Shown here: positions 1 to 30,661 of the stretch, one piece after another
Layout of the letters: each line of letters starts with the position of its first letter
Position numbering within the stretch: the first letter of the stretch is position 1
From: Methanobrevibacter sp.
GTDB lineage: Archaea > Methanobacteriota > Methanobacteria > Methanobacteriales > Methanobacteriaceae
DNA length: 32,000 nt
Direction of reading: 5' to 3'
Assembly (NCBI RefSeq): GCF_045120835.1
Contig: NZ_JBGVFE010000064.1
Coordinates: 9,131-41,130, forward strand
Position numbers and translations under genes: made by a program
Notes under the pieces: model-generated
Told to the model about the DNA's origin: nothing
What the model saw: only the letters and a program-made list of their open reading frames with translations
Database searches by the model: none

Positions 1-2031
1 GTTGCTTTATTGTCTGGAAGTGTTCCTTTAGCTAAAAAAACTGTTACTCTTACAGTTGATGGAAAATCATACACCAAAACCACTGACGATAATGGTATTG
101 TGTCACTCCCTATTAGTTTGCCTATTGGAAAATATACCATTTCATATACCAACAAGGCGGAATCCAAAATAAATTCAAAAACAGGCAGTACCACTATCGA
201 AGTCGTTGAAAAAGTCACTACCCTAAATGGATATGGATATTGGGTGTTCGGTTCAGACATGAAAAATGTAGACTTAAGTTCCCTTGCTTCTAAAGGAACT
301 ACTGATTTATTCCTGAATTACTACGCATTGGAAAAACATGGTCAAAGTGCTGTGGAATCATGGATTGCAAGTGCCAATACTTTAGGAATGAGAGTTCACA
401 TTTGGATGCAGGCATTTTATAACGATGGAGAGTGGGTAAATCCGGCAACAAACTCTAAAATTTGCACATCTAAGATAGCTGAAGCTAAAAAGTATGCTGC
501 AATTAAGGGAGTTGCAGGTGTTCACTTGGATTACTTGAGATATCCTGGAAATGCATATAAAACATCTGGAGGTACTAAAGCTATCAGCAATTTCGCAAAA
601 GATGTTGCAGAAGCGGTCCATGGCGTTAATTCTAAACTTATAGTTTCAGCTGCTTTAATGCCTGAAACCACAGATAATATTTATTATTATGGTCAGGACA
701 TGTCTGCGCTCAGTAAATATCTGGATGTTGTCATTCCAATGATTTATAAGGGAAATTATAACTCCGATACAAATTGGATCAAAACTACTACAAAATGGTT
801 TGTCGACAATTCCAATGGTGCCAAAGTTTGGGCAGGATTGCAAGGCTATGAATCTGATGATAATGTCGTGAAATTGTCCACATCTGAAATAACGAATGAT
901 GCACAGGCTGCACTTAACGGTAATGGTGCTGGAGTAATCGTATTCAGGTGGGGTCAAACCAATTTCGTAAATTTCAATTCATTGACTGCTAAATCTACAG
1001 CCTCATCCTCAACTGCGGCAACAGGTACTACAGCAGTTCCATCAGGCACTACAATATCCATTAAGAACATCATTGCAGGTGCAAATACCGTAAAATCATA
1101 TTATGCATCAATGGGTAAAGTTCCGGATACTGTAACTGCGGGAGGAATTACTTTTACAGCTTCTGAATTTTTATATGTTATGGCCAAGGCGGTTTATCAG
1201 TTGGGCAATTCCAACACTGCGGATATAGCTGTTCTTAAAGGAGTTTCAGCCCCTTCATCTCCATCCGGAGATAATATTTATTCAGAACAACTGTTGCAGG
1301 CGGATTATTTGACTGTAGCTAAAAATCTTGTTTCATTCATTGAAACAAACAATAGGGCTCCAAACTATTCCTCCTCTGCGGTAGGAAATATTATATTTGA
1401 TGAAGTGGTTGATGCATTTGCACGTACATTGTCATTTTACGGTACTGAGTCTAGATTATCCAATTACTGTACTATAACTTACATTGATTCAAGCAGCAGC
1501 AGTAGCAGTAGCAGCAGTAGCAGTTCCTCATTTTCAATAACCGGTGCGGGTTTAAATGAGAAGAACACTATAAAAGATTTAACTAATTACTATAAATCTT
1601 CTTCTAACTGTCAGGTTGGCGATTCATCTATTAAATCAATTGTTAACTCTTTAACTAGTGGTTTAACCAGTGATTCAGCAAAAGCTAAAGCAATATTCAA
1701 TTATGTGAGGGATAAAATTTCATACAGTTTCTACTATGATACAAAATATGGTGCAAAAAATACCTTATCTTATAAATCAGGTAATTGTGTGGATCAATCA
1801 CATTTATTGGTTGCAATGTTTAGAACTGCAGGCCTTGCGGCAAGATATGTTCATGGAGTATGTAAGTTCAATAGTGGAAGCACTTACGGACATGTTTGGA
1901 CTCAAGTATTAATCGATGGGGTATGGGTTTGTGCAGACCCGACCAGCAGCAGTAATTCTTTGGGAAAAATTAATAATTGGAAAACCAGTTCATTCACATT
2001 GAATGCAAGATATTGTAGTTTGCCGTTCTAG
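1..2031 (+). CDS. Surface (adhesin-like) protein, 5'-truncated by the window edge: GHL-type TIM-barrel-like region, 2 pseudomurein-binding-like repeats, poly-Ser linker and transglutaminase-like cysteine protease core
   Basis: The frame is open from nt 1, so the TTG at 10 is not a real start. GHL/DUF4015-like motifs are VHLDYLRYPG and VIPMIYKG (about 223-963). Two PMBR-like segments lie at about 1051-1210 and 1286-1443. A 14-Ser linker follows. The C-terminal transglutaminase-like triad is Cys 1786-1788 (GNCVDQSHL), His 1891-1893 (YGHVWTQV) and Asp 1936-1938 (CADPT). Confidence 0.8.
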   Translation, partial: VALLSGSVPLAKKTVTLTVDGKSYTKTTDDNGIVSLPISLPIGKYTISYTNKAESKINSKTGSTTIEVVEKVTTLNGYGYWVFGSDMKNVDLSSLASKGTTDLFLNYYALEKHGQSAVESWIASANTLGMRVHIWMQAFYNDGEWVNPATNSKICTSKIAEAKKYAAIKGVAGVHLDYLRYPGNAYKTSGGTKAISNFAKDVAEAVHGVNSKLIVSAALMPETTDNIYYYGQDMSALSKYLDVVIPMIYKGNYNSDTNWIKTTTKWFVDNSNGAKVWAGLQGYESDDNVVKLSTSEITNDAQAALNGNGAGVIVFRWGQTNFVNFNSLTAKSTASSSTAATGTTAVPSGTTISIKNIIAGANTVKSYYASMGKVPDTVTAGGITFTASEFLYVMAKAVYQLGNSNTADIAVLKGVSAPSSPSGDNIYSEQLLQADYLTVAKNLVSFIETNNRAPNYSSSAVGNIIFDEVVDAFARTLSFYGTESRLSNYCTITYIDSSSSSSSSSSSSSSFSITGAGLNEKNTIKDLTNYYKSSSNCQVGDSSIKSIVNSLTSGLTSDSAKAKAIFNYVRDKISYSFYYDTKYGAKNTLSYKSGNCVDQSHLLVAMFRTAGLAARYVHGVCKFNSGSTYGHVWTQVLIDGVWVCADPTSSSNSLGKINNWKTSSFTLNARYCSLPF
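1489..1530 (+). repeat. In-frame (AGC/AGT)n trinucleotide tract encoding 14 consecutive Ser
   Basis: The sequence reads tca agc agc agc agt agc agt agc agc agt agc agt tcc tca. It sits between the PMBR-like and transglutaminase-like parts. Confidence 0.95.
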
Positions 2032-19784: not shown

Positions 19785-20270
19785 ATGGATTTTGATGAAA
19801 GGCGTATAGATTTGGTTAAAACTTCTATTCAAAATGTAAATTCCGGTCAAAAAATCATTTCAAAGGTATTGGATAACAAGGTACATGTTCACTGGCCAAA
19901 GGAAGATGAATATTTGGGAAATGAATCCATTTTGGATCATTTGACCTGTGATGATGCTAATTGGGCTTATGATGAAGGCGGACAAATTGTTGTAGAGCGT
20001 GAAATACCTGGAGATGGGCAAATTTCTAACAAATCCAGTGATGATGTGAAAAAAGAGGAAGTTACTGTTGTCAAGCTCAAGGTGCATACCAGAAAGGATG
20101 AGGCATCATTGGTTGATTTGGCTTTAAATCATCCGGAACCTCATGTGAGAATTGCAGCTATTAAAAAAATTGAAAACAGCAATGTTCTAACCAATATAAT
20201 TGTCAATGATGAAGATAAAACTGTTAAACAGGCCGGTTTGGATAGATTAAGTGAACTGTTCGTTGAATAG
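19785..20270 (+). CDS. Hypothetical protein with C-terminal HEAT/PBS-lyase-like repeat
   Basis: The ORF follows GGTGAT. The C-terminal segment reads LALNHPEPHVRIAAIKKI...DKTVKQAGLDRL. I recognise no catalytic motif. Confidence 0.6.
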   Translation: MDFDERRIDLVKTSIQNVNSGQKIISKVLDNKVHVHWPKEDEYLGNESILDHLTCDDANWAYDEGGQIVVEREIPGDGQISNKSSDDVKKEEVTVVKLKVHTRKDEASLVDLALNHPEPHVRIAAIKKIENSNVLTNIIVNDEDKTVKQAGLDRLSELFVE

Positions 20271-20314: not shown

Positions 20315-20354
20315 TTTTTTTAAAAATAGAGGAATAAGAGTTTCAACTCTTATT
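20315..20354. terminator. Bidirectional terminator between convergent genes
   Basis: T7 then A5 (20315-20327) is followed by a perfect 9-bp hairpin AATAAGAGT/ACTCTTATT (20333-20354, 4-nt loop). The hairpin overlaps the stop of the minus-strand gene. Confidence 0.45.
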
Positions 20355-20922
20355 CGTTTTCAGATTCAGAAAATGTTTCCTGTTTAAGGGCATGCCTTTT
20401 TGTGGAAAGTATTTCCATGCAGGCAAATGCGAATCCGGTCACTACAAAGGTTAAATGAAGAATCACTCTCCAAAATTCAGTGGTAGGATCAATTGACGGA
20501 GCATTTAAAAAGTCCTGCAACAATTCAATTAGGGAAATTGCCACAACAGAACCGATGATTTTAAGTTTGAGTCCTGAAAAGTCTAAATGACCCATCCATG
20601 ATGGTCTGTCAACATGTTCTTCGGCAACGCCAATTTTTGATATGAAATTTTCATAACCTGAAAAAGCAACGATTAAAACCAAATTGGCAACCAGTGTCAA
20701 GTCCAATAGTTCCAAAACACGCATTATCCATTCATTATAGGTCAATGTTTGCATAACAGAAACAAAATCTGCCACTTCGAATACAAATCTGATTAAAATC
20801 AGTATCAGAACAAAAATTAGTAGGAAGTACATTGGGGATAATAACCAACGGCTTACAAAAAGGATTTTCTCATTATAATTTTCGATTTTATCCAATATGT
20901 CATTAAGTGAAATTTTTCTCAC
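20350..20922 (-). CDS. UPF0114 / YqhA-family membrane protein
   Basis: Carries the family signature ILFVSRWLLSPMYFLLIFVL near the N-terminus and 3-4 hydrophobic helices. The product is 190 aa. Confidence 0.75.
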   Translation of the reverse strand: MRKISLNDILDKIENYNEKILFVSRWLLSPMYFLLIFVLILILIRFVFEVADFVSVMQTLTYNEWIMRVLELLDLTLVANLVLIVAFSGYENFISKIGVAEEHVDRPSWMGHLDFSGLKLKIIGSVVAISLIELLQDFLNAPSIDPTTEFWRVILHLTFVVTGFAFACMEILSTKRHALKQETFSESENE

Positions 20923-21154: not shown

Positions 21155-21949
21155 ATGAATGATTTAAAAACAGTGATTTTAGATGCCTATGATTCAGATA
21201 TGTTATCTATTAAATTGGCTGCGATAAACAATAAAGTCAGATTTTCGATATTGGAAATTTTAAGAGATTTTGAAAAGATAAATAAGGCCGAGGATGGTTC
21301 ATTTAAAAAGGAACCATTATATTCTCGTGAAATCAATTTAATACTTTTAAATAACTACAATATAAATATCACTACTCAAATGTTGGGTCAACACTTCAAA
21401 CAGCTTGTTGAAGCGGATCTGGTTGAAGAGGTTGTTGTAAAAAAAGAGGTGCCCAATAAAATCGGTCGCAGAAGTGTTAAGGCATATGTATTAAAGGAAT
21501 GTGCCTTTGAAAGTCTGTTTTTGGATGTCAGTTTCCTGTCTGATGAGCTCCTTACGTTTTTTGATTTATACAAATCAAATCAAAGATTTTCTGATGGTGA
21601 GCATTGTGTTTTAACTATTTTCAACGGCGTTGACAAAGGTAAAACATTTAAGGTTCACAAACAGGAAAAGGTTTTAATTGGAAGAAAAGCTAATTTCAAT
21701 GCTAATGACTTGTCTTCATCTACTATACTTTTAGACAATAGCTATTCAACGGTTTCAAATGTTTCCAAACCCCATTTGAAATTATTCTTTAAGGATGATG
21801 GATGGTATATTTTGGATAGCGGAAGCACTAATGGAACATACATTGGAGATATAAAGGTTCCAACTGGAGTCGAAACAAAACTTAAGGCAAATTCATTCTT
21901 AAAATTATCTAAAGGTAATGGTGGAGCGGTTATTTATTGTTCATTTTAA
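21155..21949 (+). CDS. Winged-helix (ArsR-like) DNA-binding domain fused to a C-terminal FHA (phospho-Thr-binding) domain
   Basis: The wHTH segment reads NNKVRFSILEILRD...QMLGQHFKQLVEADLV...GRRSVKAYVL. The FHA signature residues are IGR, S-x-x-H (VSKPHLKL) and DSGSTNGTYIGD (about 21602-21946). Confidence 0.8.
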   Translation: MNDLKTVILDAYDSDMLSIKLAAINNKVRFSILEILRDFEKINKAEDGSFKKEPLYSREINLILLNNYNINITTQMLGQHFKQLVEADLVEEVVVKKEVPNKIGRRSVKAYVLKECAFESLFLDVSFLSDELLTFFDLYKSNQRFSDGEHCVLTIFNGVDKGKTFKVHKQEKVLIGRKANFNANDLSSSTILLDNSYSTVSNVSKPHLKLFFKDDGWYILDSGSTNGTYIGDIKVPTGVETKLKANSFLKLSKGNGGAVIYCSF

Positions 21950-21980
21950 TTAGATTTTTTCAAATCTAATTGGTGGTTTC

Positions 21981-24900
21981 GTGGACTTTGATGATGCAAA
22001 ATACTTAATTGAAGAATTTTTCAATGGTAAGTTCGAAGTTAAAAAATTTCTTGGAGAAGGGTCATTTGCAAAGGTGTATTTGGTAAACCATAACTACTTA
22101 GATATCTTAATGGCCATGAAAATCATCAAAGAGCCCTTAAGTGCCGCCACCAACAAAAAAGATATTTTTCGAGAAGTTACTCTAGCTTGTCAATTGAGGC
22201 ATGAGAACATAATCAGCATTTATGATGCTGCAGAGATATCCGATTTTGAAGATGGGAAAAGTCATGCTTATTTTGTAATGGAATATGTTTCTGGAGGGGA
22301 TTTGGAGAGATATTTAAATTCATTCAGCGAGAACAACATATTCATGCCAATAGAACGGTGTTTGGATATAATCAGACAAATTTTAAGTGGTCTGAATACT
22401 TTGCATTCTGCAAATCCTCCTATTGTTCATCGGGATTTGAAACCGCATAATGTTTTGGTTAGTTTTAATGATTTTGGGAATATAATTATTAAGATTTCAG
22501 ATTTTGGATTTGCAAAGGAGATTACAACCAAAGTTTCCGACATTGATATTGCAGGTACAAGACCTTATATGGCTCCGGAACTATTTGAAAAGTCGGTGTC
22601 AACGAGAAGTGACATATATGCTGTTGGAGTCATTTTCTATCAGTTGTTGACAAATCATTTCCCCTATGATGTTGAAGGATATTCCAATTCCGAGTTAATG
22701 GATTTAAAACCATGGAGCAAAGAGCTAAAGGCTCCAAGCCACTATAATGGCCAGGTATTTGACGAGTTGGATAAAATTGTGTTGAAGTGCCTTGATGCCA
22801 ATCCATCTAACAGATACGGGGATGCAGATGACCTTTTGAGGGATGTTCAAAAAGCGATGGATAAATATAAATCTAAACGGATCGTATCTGAAATCAGCCT
22901 CGACAATGACTATCATGATGATTATCATGAATATATTGTCAATGATTCAATAAAAAAAGCTTTTCAACTCGCTAAATGTGAGAATAGGCTTGGTGAAGCT
23001 ATTGAAATATTGGAAAATGAGGTATTGGCTGATTATGACATTCGAAAGTGCTATTCCGAAACTCTTAGAATATGGAAATCCAAAAGGCCCGATTTGAAAT
23101 TAATTTCTAAGGCATTCACTATCAATCTTAAGGGAAATAATTATGACCTGTCATGCAGCTTACTAAAAGAGGCAATTGCTTACAATCCTTCCATTGGAAA
23201 TAAATATCGTCATTATTTAGATTTGTGGGAAATTTTCATTGATTTGCAAAAGCATGGAAGTTTATTTAAGGCAGTCGTTTTGCTTGAAAACTTAATGGAT
23301 TCAAGCAGTGAAATAAAACAGATTTATAAAGATATAATTCCAGTACTTAAAACATATTCGGTTGAAGACATTGTCCCGGAGGCAATTCGTCTGGTCAATT
23401 CAAACAATTTGTCTGCCGGAGCAAATCTGATGGAATTTGCGGTTGTTCTTAATTCCCAAATCAGGGACAGATATGCATACGGAATGTCATTGTGGAAGCA
23501 GAATATGAAGATGCATTTCAGGGCTTCAAATGAAATCAAGGAAAATACTATTGATTATGCAATCGATTTAGGAACAACGGATTCATTAATATCTTATTTT
23601 AATAAGGGAAAACCCATAATTATTAAAAATCATGTTACTGGAGATCTGTTTACTCCTTCTGCTGTTTTAATAGAGGGAGATGATGTGGAAGTGGGTGCAA
23701 ATGCAAAAGAGGCCATCTTGGAAAACAATCCCAATGCGGTATGTGAATTTAAACATGAAATGGGATTTTCCATTCCATTCAATTTTGAAAAATCATCAAG
23801 GGTAATGTTTCCCGAAGACCTTTCGGCAGAGGTTTTAAAAGATTTGAGAGTTTCGGTTCATGATGAGATGGGAATAAATATTGAACATGCTGTAATCTGT
23901 GTTCCTGCAAATTCAAATCCTATTAAAACAAGGGCGGTTAATGAGGCAGCTAAACTTGCAGGATTCAAATCACATGGGCTTATTTTAGAGCCTATTGCAG
24001 TTTCTCTTGCATATGATCTTAAAAAGAAAAATGGAATATGGATGATTTATGATTTGGGTGGGGGAACATTCAATGTTACTTTAATCCGGGAAAATGATGG
24101 CGAAATCGAAAAGGTTGCAACCGATGGGCTGGAAAATCTGGGAGGAAATGCGTTTGACTGGAGGATTGTAAACGACTTATTTTCGCCCAAAATTGCTCAT
24201 GATTTAAGTTTGGATGATTTAAGAAGGGACAATACAAAATACCTGAAAATATTCGCTCGACTAAAGAATGCTGCCGAAATTGCCAAAAAAGATTTGACAA
24301 ATCATGATGAAGCGAAGATAGAAATTGGGGATATTTTTGAAGGATATGATTTCAGATACACTTTAACCAGAGAGGAATTTGCACACATCATTGAACCGCT
24401 GATTAAATGCACTTTCAAGTTATCAAGAAATCTTCTCGATAAAAACATGCTGTCTGAAGGTGATATTGACAGGATCATTCTTGTTGGAGGCTCATCACTA
24501 AGTCCAGTTGTCCAGGACATGATTTTGAAAGAATTTGATATTGAAATTGAATCCAGCATAAATCCATTAACAGTCGTATCAAAAGGTGCGGCCATTTATG
24601 CGGGAAGCCTTGAAAAACCTCCAGTGGAAGTCCGAAGAAAACCTCTGTCCGTACTTATAAATAATGAAAATGGTGAAATTAAAGGCAGGGTATTTTCACA
24701 AGATTTATCATATTCCTTTTTGGGTTATTCCATAGAATTTATAAACCGTGAATCCTCATTAAAATTTCCTTTAAAAATTGATGGTTCATTCAAATTTAAA
24801 TCTGGTAAAAATGATTATGAAATAAATGTTTACAATGAAGATGAAATGGTCAAACTTGATGAAAAATCACCTCATGTATTAAAGGGGCAGAATATTTTCA

Positions 24901-25493
24901 TACCTTACTTCAATGAGTATTTTTCCCTGAAAGATGAATTAATTTTCAATGATTTGATTAGCCGCTACAATAATGCTCTTAAGGATATTGAATATCTGTG
25001 CGAATTCTTGAAATTTAATGAAACTGAACTTCAGCGGTATATTGAAAGTTTACTTGAAATAGCTAGAAGAGACAGTATCGCTTTAAATCATGCTGATATT
25101 TATATTGGCCATTTAGAAAGTACTGTAAACGATGCAAAAAGGAATTTGAGATTTTCGATTCTCATGGAAAATGTTTTAAATAAAATAGAACTCATTGAAG
25201 ATGAGGCACTGTTTGAAATCGGAAGCGTTGCAGAAATTGAAGAAAGCAAAAATTTGGAGGAATTGGAAGGATTTTACCGGGATATTGTTGAAAAATATGT
25301 CTTGTTAAATAAAAATGAGGTTATAATTGAATGCTTTTACAACTTAAAGTATGGGGGCATATTTACTAATAATAAAAAACATTTTGAGGAGTTGGTGGAT
25401 AAAGCGCATGATGCCATAAGCAATCATGATTACAGGAGTCTATTTAATATTGTAAATTTATTATATGAGCTGGACGAACGCACGGATAAATAA
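21981..25493 (+). CDS. Fusion protein: Hanks-type Ser/Thr protein kinase (N-terminal), helical linker, Hsp70/DnaK-like ATPase with a divergent substrate-binding-like C-terminus
   Basis: A GTG start lies 4 nt after GGTGG. No in-frame ATG occurs before the kinase Lys. Kinase motifs (about 22029-22850) are GEGSFAKVY, AMKII, HRDLKPHNVL, DFGFAKE and YMAPE. Hsp70 NBD motifs (about 23547-24608) are IDLGTTDS, ILEPIAVSLAY, YDLGGGTFNVTLI, ILVGGSSLSPVV and NPLTVVSKGAAIYA. Confidence 0.88.
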   Translation: MDFDDAKYLIEEFFNGKFEVKKFLGEGSFAKVYLVNHNYLDILMAMKIIKEPLSAATNKKDIFREVTLACQLRHENIISIYDAAEISDFEDGKSHAYFVMEYVSGGDLERYLNSFSENNIFMPIERCLDIIRQILSGLNTLHSANPPIVHRDLKPHNVLVSFNDFGNIIIKISDFGFAKEITTKVSDIDIAGTRPYMAPELFEKSVSTRSDIYAVGVIFYQLLTNHFPYDVEGYSNSELMDLKPWSKELKAPSHYNGQVFDELDKIVLKCLDANPSNRYGDADDLLRDVQKAMDKYKSKRIVSEISLDNDYHDDYHEYIVNDSIKKAFQLAKCENRLGEAIEILENEVLADYDIRKCYSETLRIWKSKRPDLKLISKAFTINLKGNNYDLSCSLLKEAIAYNPSIGNKYRHYLDLWEIFIDLQKHGSLFKAVVLLENLMDSSSEIKQIYKDIIPVLKTYSVEDIVPEAIRLVNSNNLSAGANLMEFAVVLNSQIRDRYAYGMSLWKQNMKMHFRASNEIKENTIDYAIDLGTTDSLISYFNKGKPIIIKNHVTGDLFTPSAVLIEGDDVEVGANAKEAILENNPNAVCEFKHEMGFSIPFNFEKSSRVMFPEDLSAEVLKDLRVSVHDEMGINIEHAVICVPANSNPIKTRAVNEAAKLAGFKSHGLILEPIAVSLAYDLKKKNGIWMIYDLGGGTFNVTLIRENDGEIEKVATDGLENLGGNAFDWRIVNDLFSPKIAHDLSLDDLRRDNTKYLKIFARLKNAAEIAKKDLTNHDEAKIEIGDIFEGYDFRYTLTREEFAHIIEPLIKCTFKLSRNLLDKNMLSEGDIDRIILVGGSSLSPVVQDMILKEFDIEIESSINPLTVVSKGAAIYAGSLEKPPVEVRRKPLSVLINNENGEIKGRVFSQDLSYSFLGYSIEFINRESSLKFPLKIDGSFKFKSGKNDYEINVYNEDEMVKLDEKSPHVLKGQNIFIPYFNEYFSLKDELIFNDLISRYNNALKDIEYLCEFLKFNETELQRYIESLLEIARRDSIALNHADIYIGHLESTVNDAKRNLRFSILMENVLNKIELIEDEALFEIGSVAEIEESKNLEELEGFYRDIVEKYVLLNKNEVIIECFYNLKYGGIFTNNKKHFEELVDKAHDAISNHDYRSLFNIVNLLYELDERTDK

Positions 25494-25551
25494 AAATCTT
25501 TGTTCTGTTTAAATCGGACATTATTATAAACTAACTAATGGTGGTTATCTC

Positions 25552-25683
25552 ATGAAAAAGCAAAATTCAGTAAATGGGACAGTAATACTGAAAAAAGATT
25601 CTTCAGATGGTTTTTTGGATTTTAACTATCCTGGAGAGCTTTCTGAAGTGTTGAGAATACTAAATAAAATAATGAATGAATAG
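25552..25683 (+). CDS. Candidate 43-aa micro-protein (not in the supplied ORF track)
   Basis: An ATG lies 7 nt after GGTGG. Translation gives MKKQNSVNGTVILKKDSSDGFLDFNYPGELSEVLRILNKIMNE. It is on the same strand, between the kinase-Hsp70 and HD-RyR genes. I recognise no homology. Confidence 0.35.
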   Translation: MKKQNSVNGTVILKKDSSDGFLDFNYPGELSEVLRILNKIMNE

Positions 25684-25796
25684 GTGTAATTCTATGGAGG
25701 ATTTAATTGTTGGTGTAAAACTTCCTGTGAAGTAAGCAAACTAATTGGAAATAATTTTATATTTTAAATAGTATACAATTTATTAAAGGTGTTCTT

Positions 25797-28052
25797 ATGG
25801 GTGACAGTAATTTAAAGAAATATATTGATGATTTTTTTGATAATTTGGAGTTATATGATGATAAACACAATGGTCATTATTATAAAGGGCTTTTAAAAGC
25901 AGGAATTGATGTATTTTTAGAAACTGAAAATACATATAATGCATATGAAATCTATCAGACATTTTTCATGATTTATCAAATCACTGCGGAAAATAAATCC
26001 GATAAGGTAACCGAAAACAGTGCAGTTAACGAGCCGAACACATTATTGGACCTGGTTAAGATAATGAAAAAATATGAGGAAAATACTGGGGACTTAATTG
26101 AAAAGCAAAGGGATCACTTCATTCATTCAGTTAATGTATTTCTGTTAGGTTTGGCGATTTACTCTCAAAATAAAAGTTACCGTGATGCATTTGAGACATA
26201 TATACTCAATACTCCTTATAAAAAATATTACAGAATCAATAAAAAATTGTCTCACGAAGAGTTCTTGTACCGCTGGGGTGTGGCGTCACTCTTCCATGAT
26301 ATAGGATATCCCGTTGAAATTATCGGAAAGCAACTTAACAAATTCATAAATGATGGGGTAAAGTCCATTTCAAGTTCATACAGTGCAGATACTGCAATAG
26401 ACTTTAAGGATTTCAATGAATTCAATACCATTATGAAGATAGAGCCCGATTTTGCAGATAATTATACTGCACAATATCCTAAGGCAAAATTCCTGAATTT
26501 ATTTAAACCTACAGACATTATGGCCCATAAGATAGCTACGGATTTTTCAGGCGTTGACGTCAACATGGTGGTAAAGCATTTGGATGATTTTGTAAACATC
26601 ATGGGAGACAACGGATTTATCGACCATGGATTTTTCTCAGCGATACTCGTTTTGAATTCCTATGGTTATTTAATTCAAAAATATGCCAAAAACCATGATT
26701 TCTTCTTTTATCCTATTGTCGACAGTGCCACAGCAATCTTATTGCATAACTACTACAGAAATGTATTGCAAAAAGCACCTTTCAACTTAAAAGCGCTTCA
26801 TCCATTACAAAGTCCCCTTGCATACTTGCTCATATTATGTGACGAACTTCAGGAATGGAACAGACAGCCTTTCGGCATTAAGGACAAAAAAAGAAGCCAC
26901 GTAAATGACTTGAAGCTTGTGGTCGATGATTCCAAACTTGAAGTTGACTACATTGTCAAAAGCGGTTCGATGGGTCTTGGATTTTCCGAAGATAAACAGG
27001 AACTGCTTAAAAATGTTTTGTCAATTCCAAGTATTTTCGAAAGGAATTTCCTGATTTATACTGATGTAAAGCAGGACAGCAACATCATGAGAGAAATCGT
27101 TAAATCAGAAATCCAGTCCCCTAACACCTTGCTTAGAAATGTTGAAAAGTTGGCGCTTCAGATTCACGAGCAGTATATTGAAACCACTAAAGTTCAATTT
27201 GAGGCAAAAAAAGCCAAAGGCGAGGTTGATGAGGATGCCATAAGGGATTTCGAAGAGAAGACCAAACCGTTTAATGAGTTGTCTTCACATCTCAAGCTAG
27301 CAAATATCCGTCAGGCAAGGTCAATTCCTAAAAAGCTAAACATGATTGGCTGTGAGCTTGCAAGCAAATCAGATAAACGTGAGGCAATAACCGAATTTTC
27401 CCAAGAGGAAGTAATTGACTTGGCTATTTTCGAACATGATGAATGGTGTGAGGAAAAAATAGGTCAGGGTTGGACCTATGGGGAAGTGAGAGATGATTCC
27501 CAATTGATACATGACTGTCTGGTGCCTTGGGATGATTTGACACCTGAAATCCAGCAGTATGATATCGATCCTGTTAAAAACATCCCGGGTCTTGTTGAGT
27601 CTATAGGACTGAAAATCGTCAGAAGTAAAATCAGAATGCTTACCGTTGAGATGCATAAGTTCTACCAATCAAAAGAGGAAGGAACCAAGGACTTTGATGA
27701 TTTGCCTGAGTATATTAAATATTCAAACTACAAGCAGGCGGATTTCTTGGTTAAAATATTGGCCGAACTTGGATATGATGTGGTTGACGTTCAGTCACCC
27801 GGTGAGGCAATTGAATATTTCGATGAGGATTCCCTTGAATATCTGGCCAAAAGAGAACATAATGCATGGTATAAGCTTAAAGTCAATTTAGGTTGGAAAT
27901 TTGGTTCTGTTCGTGATGATGCCAAAAAATTAAATCCTAATGTCGTTGAATGGGAAGAACTGGACATAACAAAAAGGGATTCTAACAAAAGAACATTTAG
28001 AAATCTTCCGCAAATGTGCAACAATGTCGATTTAAAAATTGTCAAGAGCTAA
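25797..28052 (+). CDS. HD-domain (metal-dependent phosphohydrolase superfamily) protein with C-terminal RyR-like repeats, paralogue 1
   Basis: The HD motif set (about 26094-26876) is QRDHFIHSVNV, LFHDIGYP, IDHGFFSA, LLHNYY and LILCDELQEW. RyR-like repeats read LAIFEHDEWCEEKIGQGWTYGEVRDD..LVPWDDL (about 27399-27620) and LAKREHNAWYKLKVNLGWKFGSVRDD..VVEWEEL (about 27822-28043). Each is preceded by an LP..K.SN..QA....KL...G half-repeat. Confidence 0.8.
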   Translation: MGDSNLKKYIDDFFDNLELYDDKHNGHYYKGLLKAGIDVFLETENTYNAYEIYQTFFMIYQITAENKSDKVTENSAVNEPNTLLDLVKIMKKYEENTGDLIEKQRDHFIHSVNVFLLGLAIYSQNKSYRDAFETYILNTPYKKYYRINKKLSHEEFLYRWGVASLFHDIGYPVEIIGKQLNKFINDGVKSISSSYSADTAIDFKDFNEFNTIMKIEPDFADNYTAQYPKAKFLNLFKPTDIMAHKIATDFSGVDVNMVVKHLDDFVNIMGDNGFIDHGFFSAILVLNSYGYLIQKYAKNHDFFFYPIVDSATAILLHNYYRNVLQKAPFNLKALHPLQSPLAYLLILCDELQEWNRQPFGIKDKKRSHVNDLKLVVDDSKLEVDYIVKSGSMGLGFSEDKQELLKNVLSIPSIFERNFLIYTDVKQDSNIMREIVKSEIQSPNTLLRNVEKLALQIHEQYIETTKVQFEAKKAKGEVDEDAIRDFEEKTKPFNELSSHLKLANIRQARSIPKKLNMIGCELASKSDKREAITEFSQEEVIDLAIFEHDEWCEEKIGQGWTYGEVRDDSQLIHDCLVPWDDLTPEIQQYDIDPVKNIPGLVESIGLKIVRSKIRMLTVEMHKFYQSKEEGTKDFDDLPEYIKYSNYKQADFLVKILAELGYDVVDVQSPGEAIEYFDEDSLEYLAKREHNAWYKLKVNLGWKFGSVRDDAKKLNPNVVEWEELDITKRDSNKRTFRNLPQMCNNVDLKIVKS

Positions 28053-28074
28053 TCGACATTTTTATATTTTTTTC
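28024..28074 (+). terminator. Hairpin spanning the stop codon plus oligo-T after paralogue 1
   Basis: An 8-bp stem ATGTCGAT/ATCGACAT (28024-28031/28052-28059) is followed by TTTTATATTTTTTT. A second 8-bp palindrome TTATGTAA/TTACATAA lies at 28080-28103. Confidence 0.35.
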
Positions 28075-28168
28075 ACCAGTTATGTAAAATATTTATTACA
28101 TAATATGTTAACCTTATTTAATGGTGTTGATATATCTATAATTAATATGGATTATAGGTGTTATTAAT

Positions 28169-30661
28169 ATGGCTCAGGAAAGCACACAGGTTGAAAATCG
28201 AAATCGGGATTCTAATTTAAGTCATTATATTACTAATTTTTTTGACATGGTTGAATTGTATGATGATAAAATCGAATTTAAGGATAATCATGGAAAAACC
28301 CATTTTCATGATTATAAAGGTCTTTTAAAAGCATCAATTGATGTTTTTTTAGAATATGAATCATCATATACAGCTTATGAAGTTTATGAAACATTTTTAA
28401 TGATTTATCAAATCACTCCAGAGGACAAAAGTGAAGTTGATGAAAACAGTCCTAAAATTCTCATAAGTGAACCAAATAATCTTCTTGATTTGGTCAATAT
28501 CATGAGAAAATATGAAAAAAACACAGGCGATTTAATAGACAGGCAAAGGGATCATTTCATTCACTCCGTCAATGTATTCATTTTGGGTTTGGCGATTTAT
28601 GCTCAAAATGAAAATTATCGCAGATTCTTTAAAAACTATATTGTGGGCAATAAAAACTATACAAAATATTTCAGGGATAAAAAGAACAACAACGAATTTT
28701 CCCATGAGGAATTTTTATATCGTTGGGGAATTGCAGCTCTGTTCCATGATATAGGTTATCCATTTGAGATTATTGGAAAACAATTAAATAAGGTTATTGA
28801 TGAGACCGTTGAATCTATTTCCGTCAGTTATGATGTTAAGGCCAATATTGACTTTAGGGATTTCAATGAATTCAACTCCATTGTTAAATACTATCCATAT
28901 GATTATGCAGATAACTTTAGAAACACCTATGGACGTACAAAGATTCTGGATCTGTTCAAACCTACAGACATTATGGCTCATAAGATTGCTTTGGACTTTA
29001 ATCTTAATGATAATGAATTCAAACAGTTGGTTAAACATCTGAATGGATTTGTAAAAGACATGACTGCCAATGGCTTTATAGACCACGGATACTTCTCAGC
29101 CATTTTGTTATTGAATTCATATGGTAAACTGATTCAAAAGTATGCTAATAAAAATAATGATTTCTTCTTCTATCCTATCGTAGACAGTGCAACGGCTATT
29201 TTGCTACATAACTATTACAATAAAACTTTGCAGGATGAAGACAAACCATTCAATCTTGGAAAATTGGATCCGGAAGATTCCCCTATTTCATACCTTCTGA
29301 TATTATGTGATGAACTTCAGGAGTGGAACAGGCGTCCTTACGGTATTTTGGATAAACAGAAAAATCATGTAAATGATTTTGAAGTTGAAATATCCGACAA
29401 ATATTTCAATGTAACCTACATTTTAAAAAATGGGTCTATGGGTCTTGGCTTTGAAGAGGATAAGGAAAAGTTCATTAAAGATGTTTTAAATATTAGGAAA
29501 GTATTTTCCAGAAGTTTAACAATTAATCCCGAAGTTGTTTTAGATGATGTTCAAAGAGAAATCCTGATGGATAATATTCAATCTCCAGATGTGCTTTTGA
29601 GAAATATAGAGCGATTGGCTATAGAAGTTAATGAACAATACAATCAATCTCTCAAACAACAGCTAGAACAGGCCAAAAAGGATAATGATGATGAAAATAT
29701 CAAAAAATATGAGGAAAAGATAGCTCGGGCATGTGATTTTGAAGATTTGCCTGCAAGCTTAAAAATGTCAAATATCCGTCAGGCAAAGTCCATTCCAAAA
29801 AAATTGAGCATGATTGGTTGTGAAATAGCTCATAAAACTGAAGAGGAAATGGCGGATACAAAAGATTGGGAAGTTAAAGTAAAGGAATTTGAAGACAAAA
29901 TTGAAGACAATAGGCCTCCTATTGAAAAAGAAGAGGAATCCTTTGAGGATTTCAAAAAAAGGCAGGAACTGCTTGAACGGGATGGCAAGATTGTAAGGGT
30001 CATAAGATTTAGTTCAGACGATATTGATGATTTGGCCATTTATGAACATAGGGACTGGTGCAGGGAAAGAAGGGGTACCGGTTGGATTCATGATGAAGAC
30101 AATGATGACAGAATCAATAAAGTCAATCCAAATCTGGTTAAATGGGAAGAGCTTGATGAACCGACTAAACAGTTTGATAGGGATGCCATCAGTAACATTC
30201 CAAAACTTTTGGATAAAATTGGCCTAAAAGTTATCAGAAGCCGCCTCAGGTCATTGACTTATAAGATGAATCAGTTTTATGAGACAGGTAAATTGGACAG
30301 CAATTCCAGTGGTGAAGAAGATTTTAAGAGTTTGGATAAACATATTCAGTTCTCTAATTTAAAACAGGCAGACCACTTAGTTAAAATATTAAAACATAAG
30401 GGATATGAATTGGTTTCTATAAATGATTCCGGCGATCCTATTGATGGTTTTTCAAAGGATGAAATAAATCACTTTGCTAAAATGATGCATGAAAGTTGGT
30501 ATAAACTTAAACTCAATTTGGACCAGACTACAAGTAAAAATTTTGTTGAATGGGATAAGCTTAGGGAAGAGGTTAAGGAGGATAATAGGAATACCTTCAG
30601 ATATCTTCCTGAAATGTGTAAGGATGAGTATGTTGGTTTGAAAATCGTTAAGAACGAATAG
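28169..30661 (+). CDS. HD-domain protein with C-terminal RyR-like repeats, paralogue 2 (with a charged insertion and a degenerate last repeat)
   Basis: It is collinear with paralogue 1 through QRDHFIHSVNVFILGLAIY, LFHDIGYPFE, IDHGYFSAILLLNSYG, FFFYPIVDSATAILLHNYY and LLILCDELQEWNRRP. It also shares MSNIRQAKSIPKKLSMIGCE and LAIYEHRDWCRERRGTGW. Confidence 0.8.
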   Translation: MAQESTQVENRNRDSNLSHYITNFFDMVELYDDKIEFKDNHGKTHFHDYKGLLKASIDVFLEYESSYTAYEVYETFLMIYQITPEDKSEVDENSPKILISEPNNLLDLVNIMRKYEKNTGDLIDRQRDHFIHSVNVFILGLAIYAQNENYRRFFKNYIVGNKNYTKYFRDKKNNNEFSHEEFLYRWGIAALFHDIGYPFEIIGKQLNKVIDETVESISVSYDVKANIDFRDFNEFNSIVKYYPYDYADNFRNTYGRTKILDLFKPTDIMAHKIALDFNLNDNEFKQLVKHLNGFVKDMTANGFIDHGYFSAILLLNSYGKLIQKYANKNNDFFFYPIVDSATAILLHNYYNKTLQDEDKPFNLGKLDPEDSPISYLLILCDELQEWNRRPYGILDKQKNHVNDFEVEISDKYFNVTYILKNGSMGLGFEEDKEKFIKDVLNIRKVFSRSLTINPEVVLDDVQREILMDNIQSPDVLLRNIERLAIEVNEQYNQSLKQQLEQAKKDNDDENIKKYEEKIARACDFEDLPASLKMSNIRQAKSIPKKLSMIGCEIAHKTEEEMADTKDWEVKVKEFEDKIEDNRPPIEKEEESFEDFKKRQELLERDGKIVRVIRFSSDDIDDLAIYEHRDWCRERRGTGWIHDEDNDDRINKVNPNLVKWEELDEPTKQFDRDAISNIPKLLDKIGLKVIRSRLRSLTYKMNQFYETGKLDSNSSGEEDFKSLDKHIQFSNLKQADHLVKILKHKGYELVSINDSGDPIDGFSKDEINHFAKMMHESWYKLKLNLDQTTSKNFVEWDKLREEVKEDNRNTFRYLPEMCKDEYVGLKIVKNE

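Follow-up and report, generated by a model that had tools for sequence, protein, structure and literature searches.

Two apparently separable gene modules, a kinase::Hsp70/FHA module and a pair of HD-like-RyR genes, at a variable chromosomal locus of Methanobrevibacter

The 32-kb window analyzed here (32,000 nucleotides [nt] of Methanobrevibacter sp. contig NZ_JBGVFE010000064.1, positions 9,131 to 41,130) contains a cluster of five plus-strand genes separated by gaps of 31, 58, 113, and 116 nt. An earlier description made from the letters alone, here called the sequence-only reading, gave the open reading frames (ORFs), their coordinates, and these gaps correctly, and it interpreted the cluster as a single pathway running from a sensor kinase through a phosphothreonine (pThr) reader to a pair of effectors. 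Our analysis favors two separable modules that are neighbors within a variable part of the chromosome. Module A consists of genes for a protein with a probable winged helix and an FHA domain (wHTH-FHA), a fusion of a Hanks-type kinase to an Hsp70-like domain (kinase::Hsp70), and a small protein of 43 amino acids (aa). Module B consists of two genes for large proteins, of 751 and 830 aa, that join an HD-like domain to RyR repeats, and we interpret it as an orphan Thoeris-like sensing effector pair. We assign this reading a probability of roughly 0.58. The HD-like-RyR family is most likely Thoeris-effector-like because most of its relatives have a TIR or DUF4062 partner, and the pair is considered an orphan here because the window has no TIR/NADase gene.

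A scan of one genome per species for relatives of the HD-like domain returned 37 archaeal and 40 bacterial loci, and partner genes in these loci were assigned by domain hidden Markov models (HMMs). In 29 of the 40 bacterial loci, the HD-like-RyR gene adjoins either a TIR gene (20 loci) or a gene for a DUF4062-STAND(-TPR) protein (9 further loci; Pfam), and in L050, L072, L073, and L076 the TIR gene and its neighbor share a 4-bp stop/start overlap. An overlapping two-gene operon of a TIR gene and a second gene is the classic layout of a signal producer plus its effector (10.64898/2025.12.03.692087), and DUF4062 is a TIR-like NADase of Avs-type and other defense proteins (10.64898/2026.05.01.722283; 10.64898/2026.09.04.749371). 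The partners also occur within single polypeptides: L066 encodes an HD-like-RyR-TIR fusion, and four family representatives are TIR(-TIR)-HD-like-RyR fusions, with TIR_2 matches at E values of 1e-20 to 1e-27. Five loci have SLOG/SLATT-like membrane-protein neighbors. Among the archaeal loci, 7 of 37 have a TIR or TIR-like gene. Within Methanobrevibacter, two TIR genes lie upstream in each of L015, L016, L021, and L052, a DUF4062+STAND gene lies directly downstream in L034, and a TIR-TIR fusion is found in L003 inside the orthologous array that adjoins the kinase module. For the HD-like-RyR genes, these partners and fusions bear out the link to conflict systems that the sequence-only reading had drawn.

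The two module B proteins are indeed paralogs with RyR-like repeats, as had been proposed. They are 51% identical end to end, and both exceed the 27.4-bit cutoff of the Pfam RyR family, PF02026 (105.4 bits and E = 1.8e-30 for the 751-aa protein; 45.8 bits and E = 7.6e-12 for the 830-aa protein). The 751-aa protein also matches solved RyR repeats in the PDB with E values down to 1.2e-25, and the window proteins carry two or three RyR repeats per chain. Phage RyR domains of the R12 type bind 2'/3'-cyclic ADP-ribose (cADPR) through H, W, H, and D residues, phage RyDEP cleaves 2'/3'-cADPR, and the residue set H-x-x-W...H...D is common to phage RyR domains and animal RyR repeats (PMC13232231; 10.64898/2026.06.04.730250). 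When pocket residues were compared in an HMM alignment of 183 RyR repeats, the repeat at residues 538 to 610 of the 751-aa protein was found to have exactly the tetrad H-W-H-D, at the same spacing as in the phage glycosidase RyDEP and the phage sponge RyR-Tad, which share its PF02026 domain. The corresponding tetrad is H-W-N-D in the 830-aa paralog and H-W-S-D or H-W-T-D in bacterial family members. The phage RyR anti-Thoeris proteins are homodimers of ~140 to 180 aa that destroy or sequester signals, whereas the window proteins are cellular proteins of 751 and 830 aa with a 430-aa HD-like domain. The HD-like-RyR family is nearly absent from viruses, with 2 weak matches in 2.9 million viral contigs (IMG/VR), and we rejected a viral origin or an anti-defense role for it on this basis.

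No Pfam family corresponds to the N-terminal region (~430 aa) of the RyR proteins, and the window proteins have no match to PF01966. This domain belongs to a family with 1,160 representatives at 50% clustering. In 28 diverse members, the residues R105, H107, H110, H167-D168, D276-H277, H317, D349, and R356 are invariant, in agreement with the H...HD...H...D metal-binding pattern of HD phosphohydrolases, and the 830-aa paralog retains all of them. Matches to PF01966 that stayed below the 22-bit cutoff (E = 0.017 to 0.23) were obtained for 6 of 28 members and for 5 of 10, and the alignments always place profile positions 2 to 40 on the H...HD stretch. A single-sequence structure prediction of the domain had a predicted local distance difference test score (pLDDT) of 35.7 and was replaced by an alignment-based AlphaFold2 (AF2) model with a pLDDT of 87.9 and a predicted template-modeling score of 0.90. 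With the AF2 model, a Foldseek search of the PDB gave no significant match (the best E value, 7e-3, came with a template-modeling score of 0.12); HD-fold proteins were among the weak matches (PPX, probability 0.72; PDE1B, E = 1.1). There was no significant Foldseek match in BFVD, and a profile search of PDB sequences gave spurious matches only. Because PF01966 remains below threshold and Foldseek finds no significant match, we call the domain HD-like rather than an HD domain; its residue pattern suggests that it is probably a very divergent metal-dependent hydrolase. The HD motif set of the sequence-only reading therefore holds at the level of the invariant His and Asp residues but not at the level of an above-threshold profile or structure match.

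Under the orphan-pair reading, the RyR repeats (R12 type) would be the sensor of an adenine/ADP-ribose-type nucleotide and the HD-like domain, with its His/Asp cluster, the output of module B. An NAD+-derived signal made on infection would bind the RyR pocket and thereby switch on the HD-like domain. The pair in this genome would answer to a producer encoded elsewhere, or it would be the decaying remnant of a larger array. The data establish the domain content, the distribution of the family, its gene neighborhoods and fusions, and the conserved pocket residues; the ligand, the enzymatic activity, a role in defense, and the direction of signaling are inferred. The more general proposition, that HD-like-RyR proteins form a cellular receptor/effector class for TIR/NADase-derived ADP-ribose-type signals, Thoeris-like and spread over bacteria and archaea, we put forward tentatively, at somewhat short of even odds.

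The HD-like-RyR proteins may act as toxic effectors or as signal-removing regulators, and we considered both. As signal removers, they would be host proteins comparable to ring nucleases that dispose of ADP-ribose-type signals or metabolites: the RyR repeats would, like phage RyDEP, bind cADPR isomers or cleave them, and hydrolysis of the product would fall to the HD-like domain. Such proteins would tune the threshold at which TIR/NADase systems respond, or detoxify these systems, and in this methanogen they would serve nucleotide housekeeping. Consistent with this possibility, equivalents of the RyDEP catalytic dyad (H75 and D117) are found in both window paralogs (PMC13232231), the genes persist without TIR in most Methanobrevibacter loci, and the family adjoins DUF4062-STAND proteins, which deplete NAD+ and need no second effector (10.64898/2026.09.04.749371). 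However, the overlapping TIR operons have the layout of a producer plus an effector (10.64898/2025.12.03.692087), a TIR fusion within the same polypeptide fits a degrader less obviously than it fits a producer/receptor pair, and most of the phage RyR homologs that have been tested bind the signal without cleaving it (PMC13232231). Overall, we regard the signal-removing role as unlikely.

The relationship between the two modules can be judged from related loci. The common gene order in Methanobrevibacter is RtcB, SIS, wHTH-FHA, kinase::Hsp70, the small ORF, and Metallophos, followed by 1 to 4 HD-like-RyR genes (tandem pairs are the rule), two membrane proteins, MatE, TPR, and ABC. The window is a reduced version of this order without the RtcB, SIS, and phosphatase genes. 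In 16 Methanobrevibacter species-level loci, the RyR genes immediately follow module A, with gene order and strand conserved. Eleven Methanobrevibacter HD-like-RyR loci whose upstream sequence extends for 6 kb or more have neither FHA nor kinase::Hsp70, and in three of these (L012, L027, and L030) the HD-like-RyR genes occupy the window's syntenic site without module A. At L078, the flanks of the window are kept (aldo-keto reductase and O-acetylhomoserine sulfhydrylase upstream; MatE, TPR, and ABC downstream) around an FHA gene, a kinase::Hsp70 gene (52% identical over the Hsp70-like half), and a 46-aa ORF, with no HD-like-RyR gene. In Methanosphaera BMS, modules A and B are 5 kb apart on opposite strands. 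Since module A alone, module B alone, and both together occur at one syntenic site, we conclude that the modules are separable; the same differences among relatives show that the locus is variable and support the accessory character that the sequence-only reading had given it.

These data can be compared with the model of that reading, in which the cluster is one integrated system: kinase::Hsp70 would sense stress or an invader and phosphorylate targets to be read by the wHTH-FHA factor, and the HD-like-RyR proteins would be its dedicated effectors. Such effectors might themselves be controlled by phosphorylation, like the repeat 3-4 region of animal RyR channels. The conserved order and strand of A followed by B in the 16 loci, usually with a phosphatase gene between them, the short intergenic gaps, the proximity of both modules in Methanosphaera, and the TIR-fusion array directly downstream of the kinase module in L003 all fit this model. 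In contrast, co-occurrence is confined to one archaeal family: the kinase module is present in 0 of 40 bacterial HD-like-RyR loci (two have a generic kinase only), and an HD-like-RyR gene is present in 0 of 4 distant loci resembling module A (those of M. oralis, Dehalococcoidales, Pyrinomonadaceae, and Amycolatopsis). The co-occurrence of kinase::Hsp70 and HD-RyR homologs that the sequence-only reading wanted checked is found as conserved synteny within this family and in none of the loci compared outside it. Each module also occurs without the other at the same site, and the two are on opposite strands in Methanosphaera. The shared strand of the five genes in the window carries little weight because almost all genes of the 32 kb are on the plus strand. 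Finally, a TATA-box-like candidate lies ~30 nt upstream of the Shine-Dalgarno sequence and ATG of the 751-aa gene, and a T-run that may be a terminator is followed by another TATA-like sequence before the 830-aa gene; these sequences are compatible with separate transcription. Comparative genomics points to a TIR-type NADase rather than a kinase as the upstream partner of the HD-like-RyR proteins, and we consider the single integrated pathway quite unlikely. An extended version, in which the HD-like-RyR class has been rewired under kinase::Hsp70 and FHA in Methanobrevibacter, so that phosphorylation gates or replaces the TIR step and the whole forms one archaeal immune pathway, seems very unlikely to us. 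The modules are neighbors in a single archaeal family, where this arrangement could have been inherited as synteny of a variable island; apart from such genus-level synteny, no observation calls for a functional link between them or supports one.

Several observations weigh against the interpretation of two independent modules with a Thoeris-like pair. By tblastn, the window contains no TIR or DUF4062 sequence, so a Thoeris-like logic is not demonstrable for this genome. The conserved adjacency of the modules and the short gaps between the genes make co-transcription, or a functional link specific to this lineage, possible. The RyR pocket of the 830-aa paralog and those of the second repeats are degenerate, and the HD assignment is weak by sequence, by profile, and by Foldseek. 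In L036 (9100-12375), Metallophos is directly upstream of a fragmented HD-like-RyR gene without a kinase module, and because of this arrangement the phosphatase may be a partner of the RyR genes and not of the kinase.

Pfam supports the assignments made earlier for module A, as it does for the RyR repeats. In the 264-aa protein, an FHA domain spans residues 174 to 251 (PF00498; E = 5.5e-9), and the pThr-binding residues GR, SxxH, and NG are visible in the translation. The earlier wHTH call has weak but consistent backing: the N-terminal 150 aa give HxlR, HTH_20, ArsR, and MarR matches in 4 of 7 orthologs (best E value, 0.0013), all of them below threshold, and the best PDB profile match is an HxlR-type regulator (E = 0.35). 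A winged helix is the probable fold of this domain. In 16 loci, an ortholog of the wHTH-FHA gene immediately precedes the kinase gene. The 1,170-aa protein has a Pkinase match (E = 8.9e-55) at residues 18 to 283 (nt 22032 to 22829) with all catalytic motifs kept (the Lys in AMKII, HRDLKPHN, DFG, and APE), and from these motifs the kinase is predicted to be catalytically competent. Its HSP70 match covers profile positions 4 to 376 of 599 and thus comprises the nucleotide-binding domain but no substrate-binding domain; neither the linker nor the C-terminal 290 aa has a Pfam match. The protein does not have the composition of a DnaK-type chaperone, namely, a nucleotide-binding domain plus a substrate-binding domain with GrpE and DnaJ partners. 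The same kinase::Hsp70 fusion, at 1,133 to 1,209 aa, is found in 17 loci. The statement of the sequence-only reading that FHA, Hanks kinase, and RyR domains are unusual in methanogens does not hold within Methanobrevibacter and Methanosphaera, which have more than 100 clusters of close homologs.

The association of FHA, kinase, Hsp70-like protein, and in some cases phosphatase recurs across bacteria and archaea. The Hsp70-like part of the fusion groups with "Hsp70 family proteins" of ~830 aa. A split version occurs in M. oralis, consisting of Clp_N, a ClpB-like AAA protein, a kinase with linker, a 457-aa protein, a GrpE-like protein, an Hsp70-like protein, Metallophos, and an FHA protein that is 65 to 74% identical to the one in the window. 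In Dehalococcoidales the order is FHA-Trans_reg_C, PP2C, Clp_N, FHA, and kinase, followed by GrpE-like and Hsp70-like genes, and Pyrinomonadaceae have a similar set. The clusters of both groups contain a Hanks kinase, FHA, and FHA-Trans_reg_C together with PP2C, Clp_N, or DnaJ_C, as well as a protein of ~500 aa and a shorter one, which in Dehalococcoidales has 167 aa and is weakly GrpE-like and in Pyrinomonadaceae has 193 aa. Amycolatopsis has a three-gene core only. The standalone Hsp70-like genes (L081:5965-7971, L079:5827-7933, L082:5961-8017, and L083:5585-7932) always follow two genes, one for a protein of ~460 to 565 aa without a family and one for a protein of ~170 to 200 aa; the small proteins of L081 and L079 are weakly GrpE-like (E = 1.8e-4 and 6.9e-3, respectively). 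Both companion genes have been lost beside the fused gene of the window. From the split versions in these relatives, we conclude that module A is a fused, trimmed member of a widespread phospho-signaling/chaperone-like system. The kinase+HSP70 architecture was noted in Pirellula in 2005 and has been uncharacterized since (Krupa and Srinivasan, 2005; PMC1262709). The GTPase/Hsp70 conflict systems of Kaur et al. (2020) were rejected as a home for module A, since their components (GTPases and tubulin) differ.

In the mechanism that we envisage for module A, the Hsp70-like ATPase domain would be a client- or nucleotide-controlled switch of the fused kinase, the kinase would write pThr marks, and the wHTH-FHA protein would read these marks and change transcription. 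The 43-aa protein might be a cofactor or a substrate of this module. The Metallophos phosphatase would reset it in relatives and would have been lost here.

The small ORF with a good Shine-Dalgarno sequence, which had been singled out before, proved to be a conserved gene. An ORF of 40 to 49 aa is present at the matching position in 16 loci, with 41 to 64% identity, a common motif (TV[IVL]LNK..NSDGFLDFN...DL..V.K.LNK), and preceding GGTG-like ribosome-binding sites. It is also kept in L078, the locus without an HD-like-RyR gene, and the 43-aa protein had no family match in our searches. In 15 relatives, the small ORF is followed by a gene for a Metallophos (calcineurin-like) phosphoesterase of ~258 aa, which is also present in M. 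oralis; L005, like the window, has lost the phosphatase. The window has no Metallophos or PP2C homolog, which leaves the signaling module here without a cognate Ser/Thr phosphatase. We rejected the idea that the small ORF is a relic of the Metallophos gene, given that tblastn with 15 Metallophos orthologs found nothing in the window and that the small ORF is conserved in its own right ahead of the phosphatase gene.

The surroundings of the cluster bear on one further explanation, that the order reflects plain vertical synteny of unrelated housekeeping genes and that neither module has a role in conflict or signaling. The rest of the window is indeed core metabolism and translation (IF2, eIF2-gamma, TyrRS/TrpRS, tRNA intron endonuclease, and NDK), with genes for argininosuccinate lyase and a pseudomurein-binding protein also present, a gene content that assigns the window to Methanobacteriales. 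The window has no composition anomaly and no mobile-element marks, and tRNA and Rfam scans of it for integration sites and RNA elements gave no match. However, the presence of the modules varies at one site, the number of paralogs varies from 1 to 4, and members from two domains of life commonly have TIR, DUF4062-STAND, or SLATT neighbors or TIR fusions. We consider the housekeeping explanation highly improbable. PADLOC gave no full-length match to a system protein: its matches to MADS mad6, PD-T4-6, and Mokosh cover the generic kinase domain only (residues 9 to 330), and the other four proteins of the cluster had no match. The PADLOC systems were therefore rejected as a home for the cluster.

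The pair in module B resembles Thoeris (ThsB TIR plus a signal-activated effector such as the SIR2-SLOG protein ThsA; types I to XI) in that HD-like-RyR relatives are likewise paired with or fused to TIR, and in that a predicted nucleotide-binding sensor is joined to a putative enzymatic domain, as SLOG is joined to SIR2 in ThsA. It differs in that the sensor would be RyR/R12 rather than SLOG or Macro, the output is HD-like, and the window itself has no TIR gene. Neither RyR nor PF02026 appears in the text or supplements of the December 2025 Thoeris catalog of 29 effector types, and a cellular RyR family coupled to TIR-type immune enzymes is apparently undescribed in the searchable literature. 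Avs-type STAND proteins with an N-terminal DUF4062/NIR NADase are a second point of comparison, since a DUF4062-STAND-TPR gene adjoins HD-like-RyR in 9 bacterial loci and 1 Methanobrevibacter locus. The Avs proteins described so far act alone as sensor and effector, whereas here a neighbor is conserved; such an HD-like-RyR partner is not described in the searchable literature, and the window has no Avs gene. Module A resembles the bacterial Hanks kinase/FHA/PP2C modules in its active-type kinase and FHA reader, with a phosphatase in relatives, and the kinase+HSP70 proteins of Pirellula (PMC1262709) in that a kinase is joined or adjacent to an Hsp70-like ATPase. It differs from the bacterial modules in that its FHA domain is linked to a probable wHTH, no substrate-binding domain accompanies its Hsp70 part, and the archaeal phosphatase is of the Metallophos type and is absent from the window.

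Phage RyR domains described in 2026 counter immunity, and the family examined here suggests a host-side use of the same domain, in which an effector partnered with TIR or a TIR-like NADase would rely on it for sensing. If this is correct, it would add a new sensor and a new output domain to TIR signaling and extend the reach of such signaling to gut methanogens. It would also provide a simple prokaryotic model for RyR repeats as receptors of cADPR or ADP-ribose, a role long disputed for animal channels, and would make HD-like-RyR a prokaryotic antecedent of cADPR-RyR signaling. The module of kinase, GrpE-like, Hsp70-like, phosphatase, and FHA proteins is a second widespread, uncharacterized signaling system.

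Table 1. Features of the five-gene cluster, with positions in the 32-kb window and, for domains, in the protein
Feature	Residues (aa)	Position (nt)	Strand	Basis or remark
wHTH-FHA gene	264	21155-21949	+	ORF call, module A
kinase::Hsp70-like gene	1170	21981-25493	+	ORF call, module A
Helical linker, 1,170-aa protein	300-525		+	No Pfam match
Hsp70-like nucleotide-binding domain	528-878	23562-24614	+	HSP70, E = 5.2e-67
Small conserved gene	43	25552-25683	+	ORF call, module A
AT-rich TATA-box-like candidate, possible own promoter of 751-aa gene		25750-25770	+	Sequence only: aataattttatattttaaat
HD-like-RyR gene	751	25797-28052	+	ORF call, module B
All-alpha HD-like domain, 751-aa protein	1-~430	25797-27086	+	Family alignment and AF2 model
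Canonical RyR repeat, 751-aa protein	538-610	27408-27626	+	PF02026
Second RyR repeat, 751-aa protein	679-751	27831-28049	+	
T-run, possible archaeal terminator, right after 751-aa stop codon		28059-28073	+	Sequence only: tttttatattttttt
HD-like-RyR paralog, with acidic/lysine-rich insert before first canonical repeat	830	28169-30661	+	Module B

A few further features of the related loci were recorded. In Methanobrevibacter RUG13973 (L003:9188-20244), a four-gene HD-like-RyR array directly follows the kinase module; its 1,070-aa paralog begins with two TIR domains, and its 1,021-aa paralog begins with a domain of ~270 aa that L024, L025, and L026 encode as a gene of its own. In six Anaerolineales loci (L038, L040, L041, L044, L045, and L068), the HD-like-RyR gene is followed by a gene for a RyR-repeat protein of ~590 to 610 aa whose N-terminal domain differs from the HD-like domain, a second RyR-bearing partner family. 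In a Peptococcaceae metagenome-assembled genome (L049:10001-11900), the HD-like-RyR frame appears disrupted, being a tblastn match without a long ORF, which would suggest either a pseudogene or an assembly error; it is flanked by a DUF4062-STAND gene, itself intact, and a SLOG/SLATT-like gene.

Next to the cluster, on the minus strand at 20350-20922, lies a gene for a UPF0114 (TIGR00645) membrane protein, which recurs in Methanosphaera (L002:12305-12922), directly after the RyR pair, and at L014:397. A 161-aa ORF at 19785-20270 on the plus strand has only weak HEAT-repeat matches (E = 0.003) and a homolog in L007.

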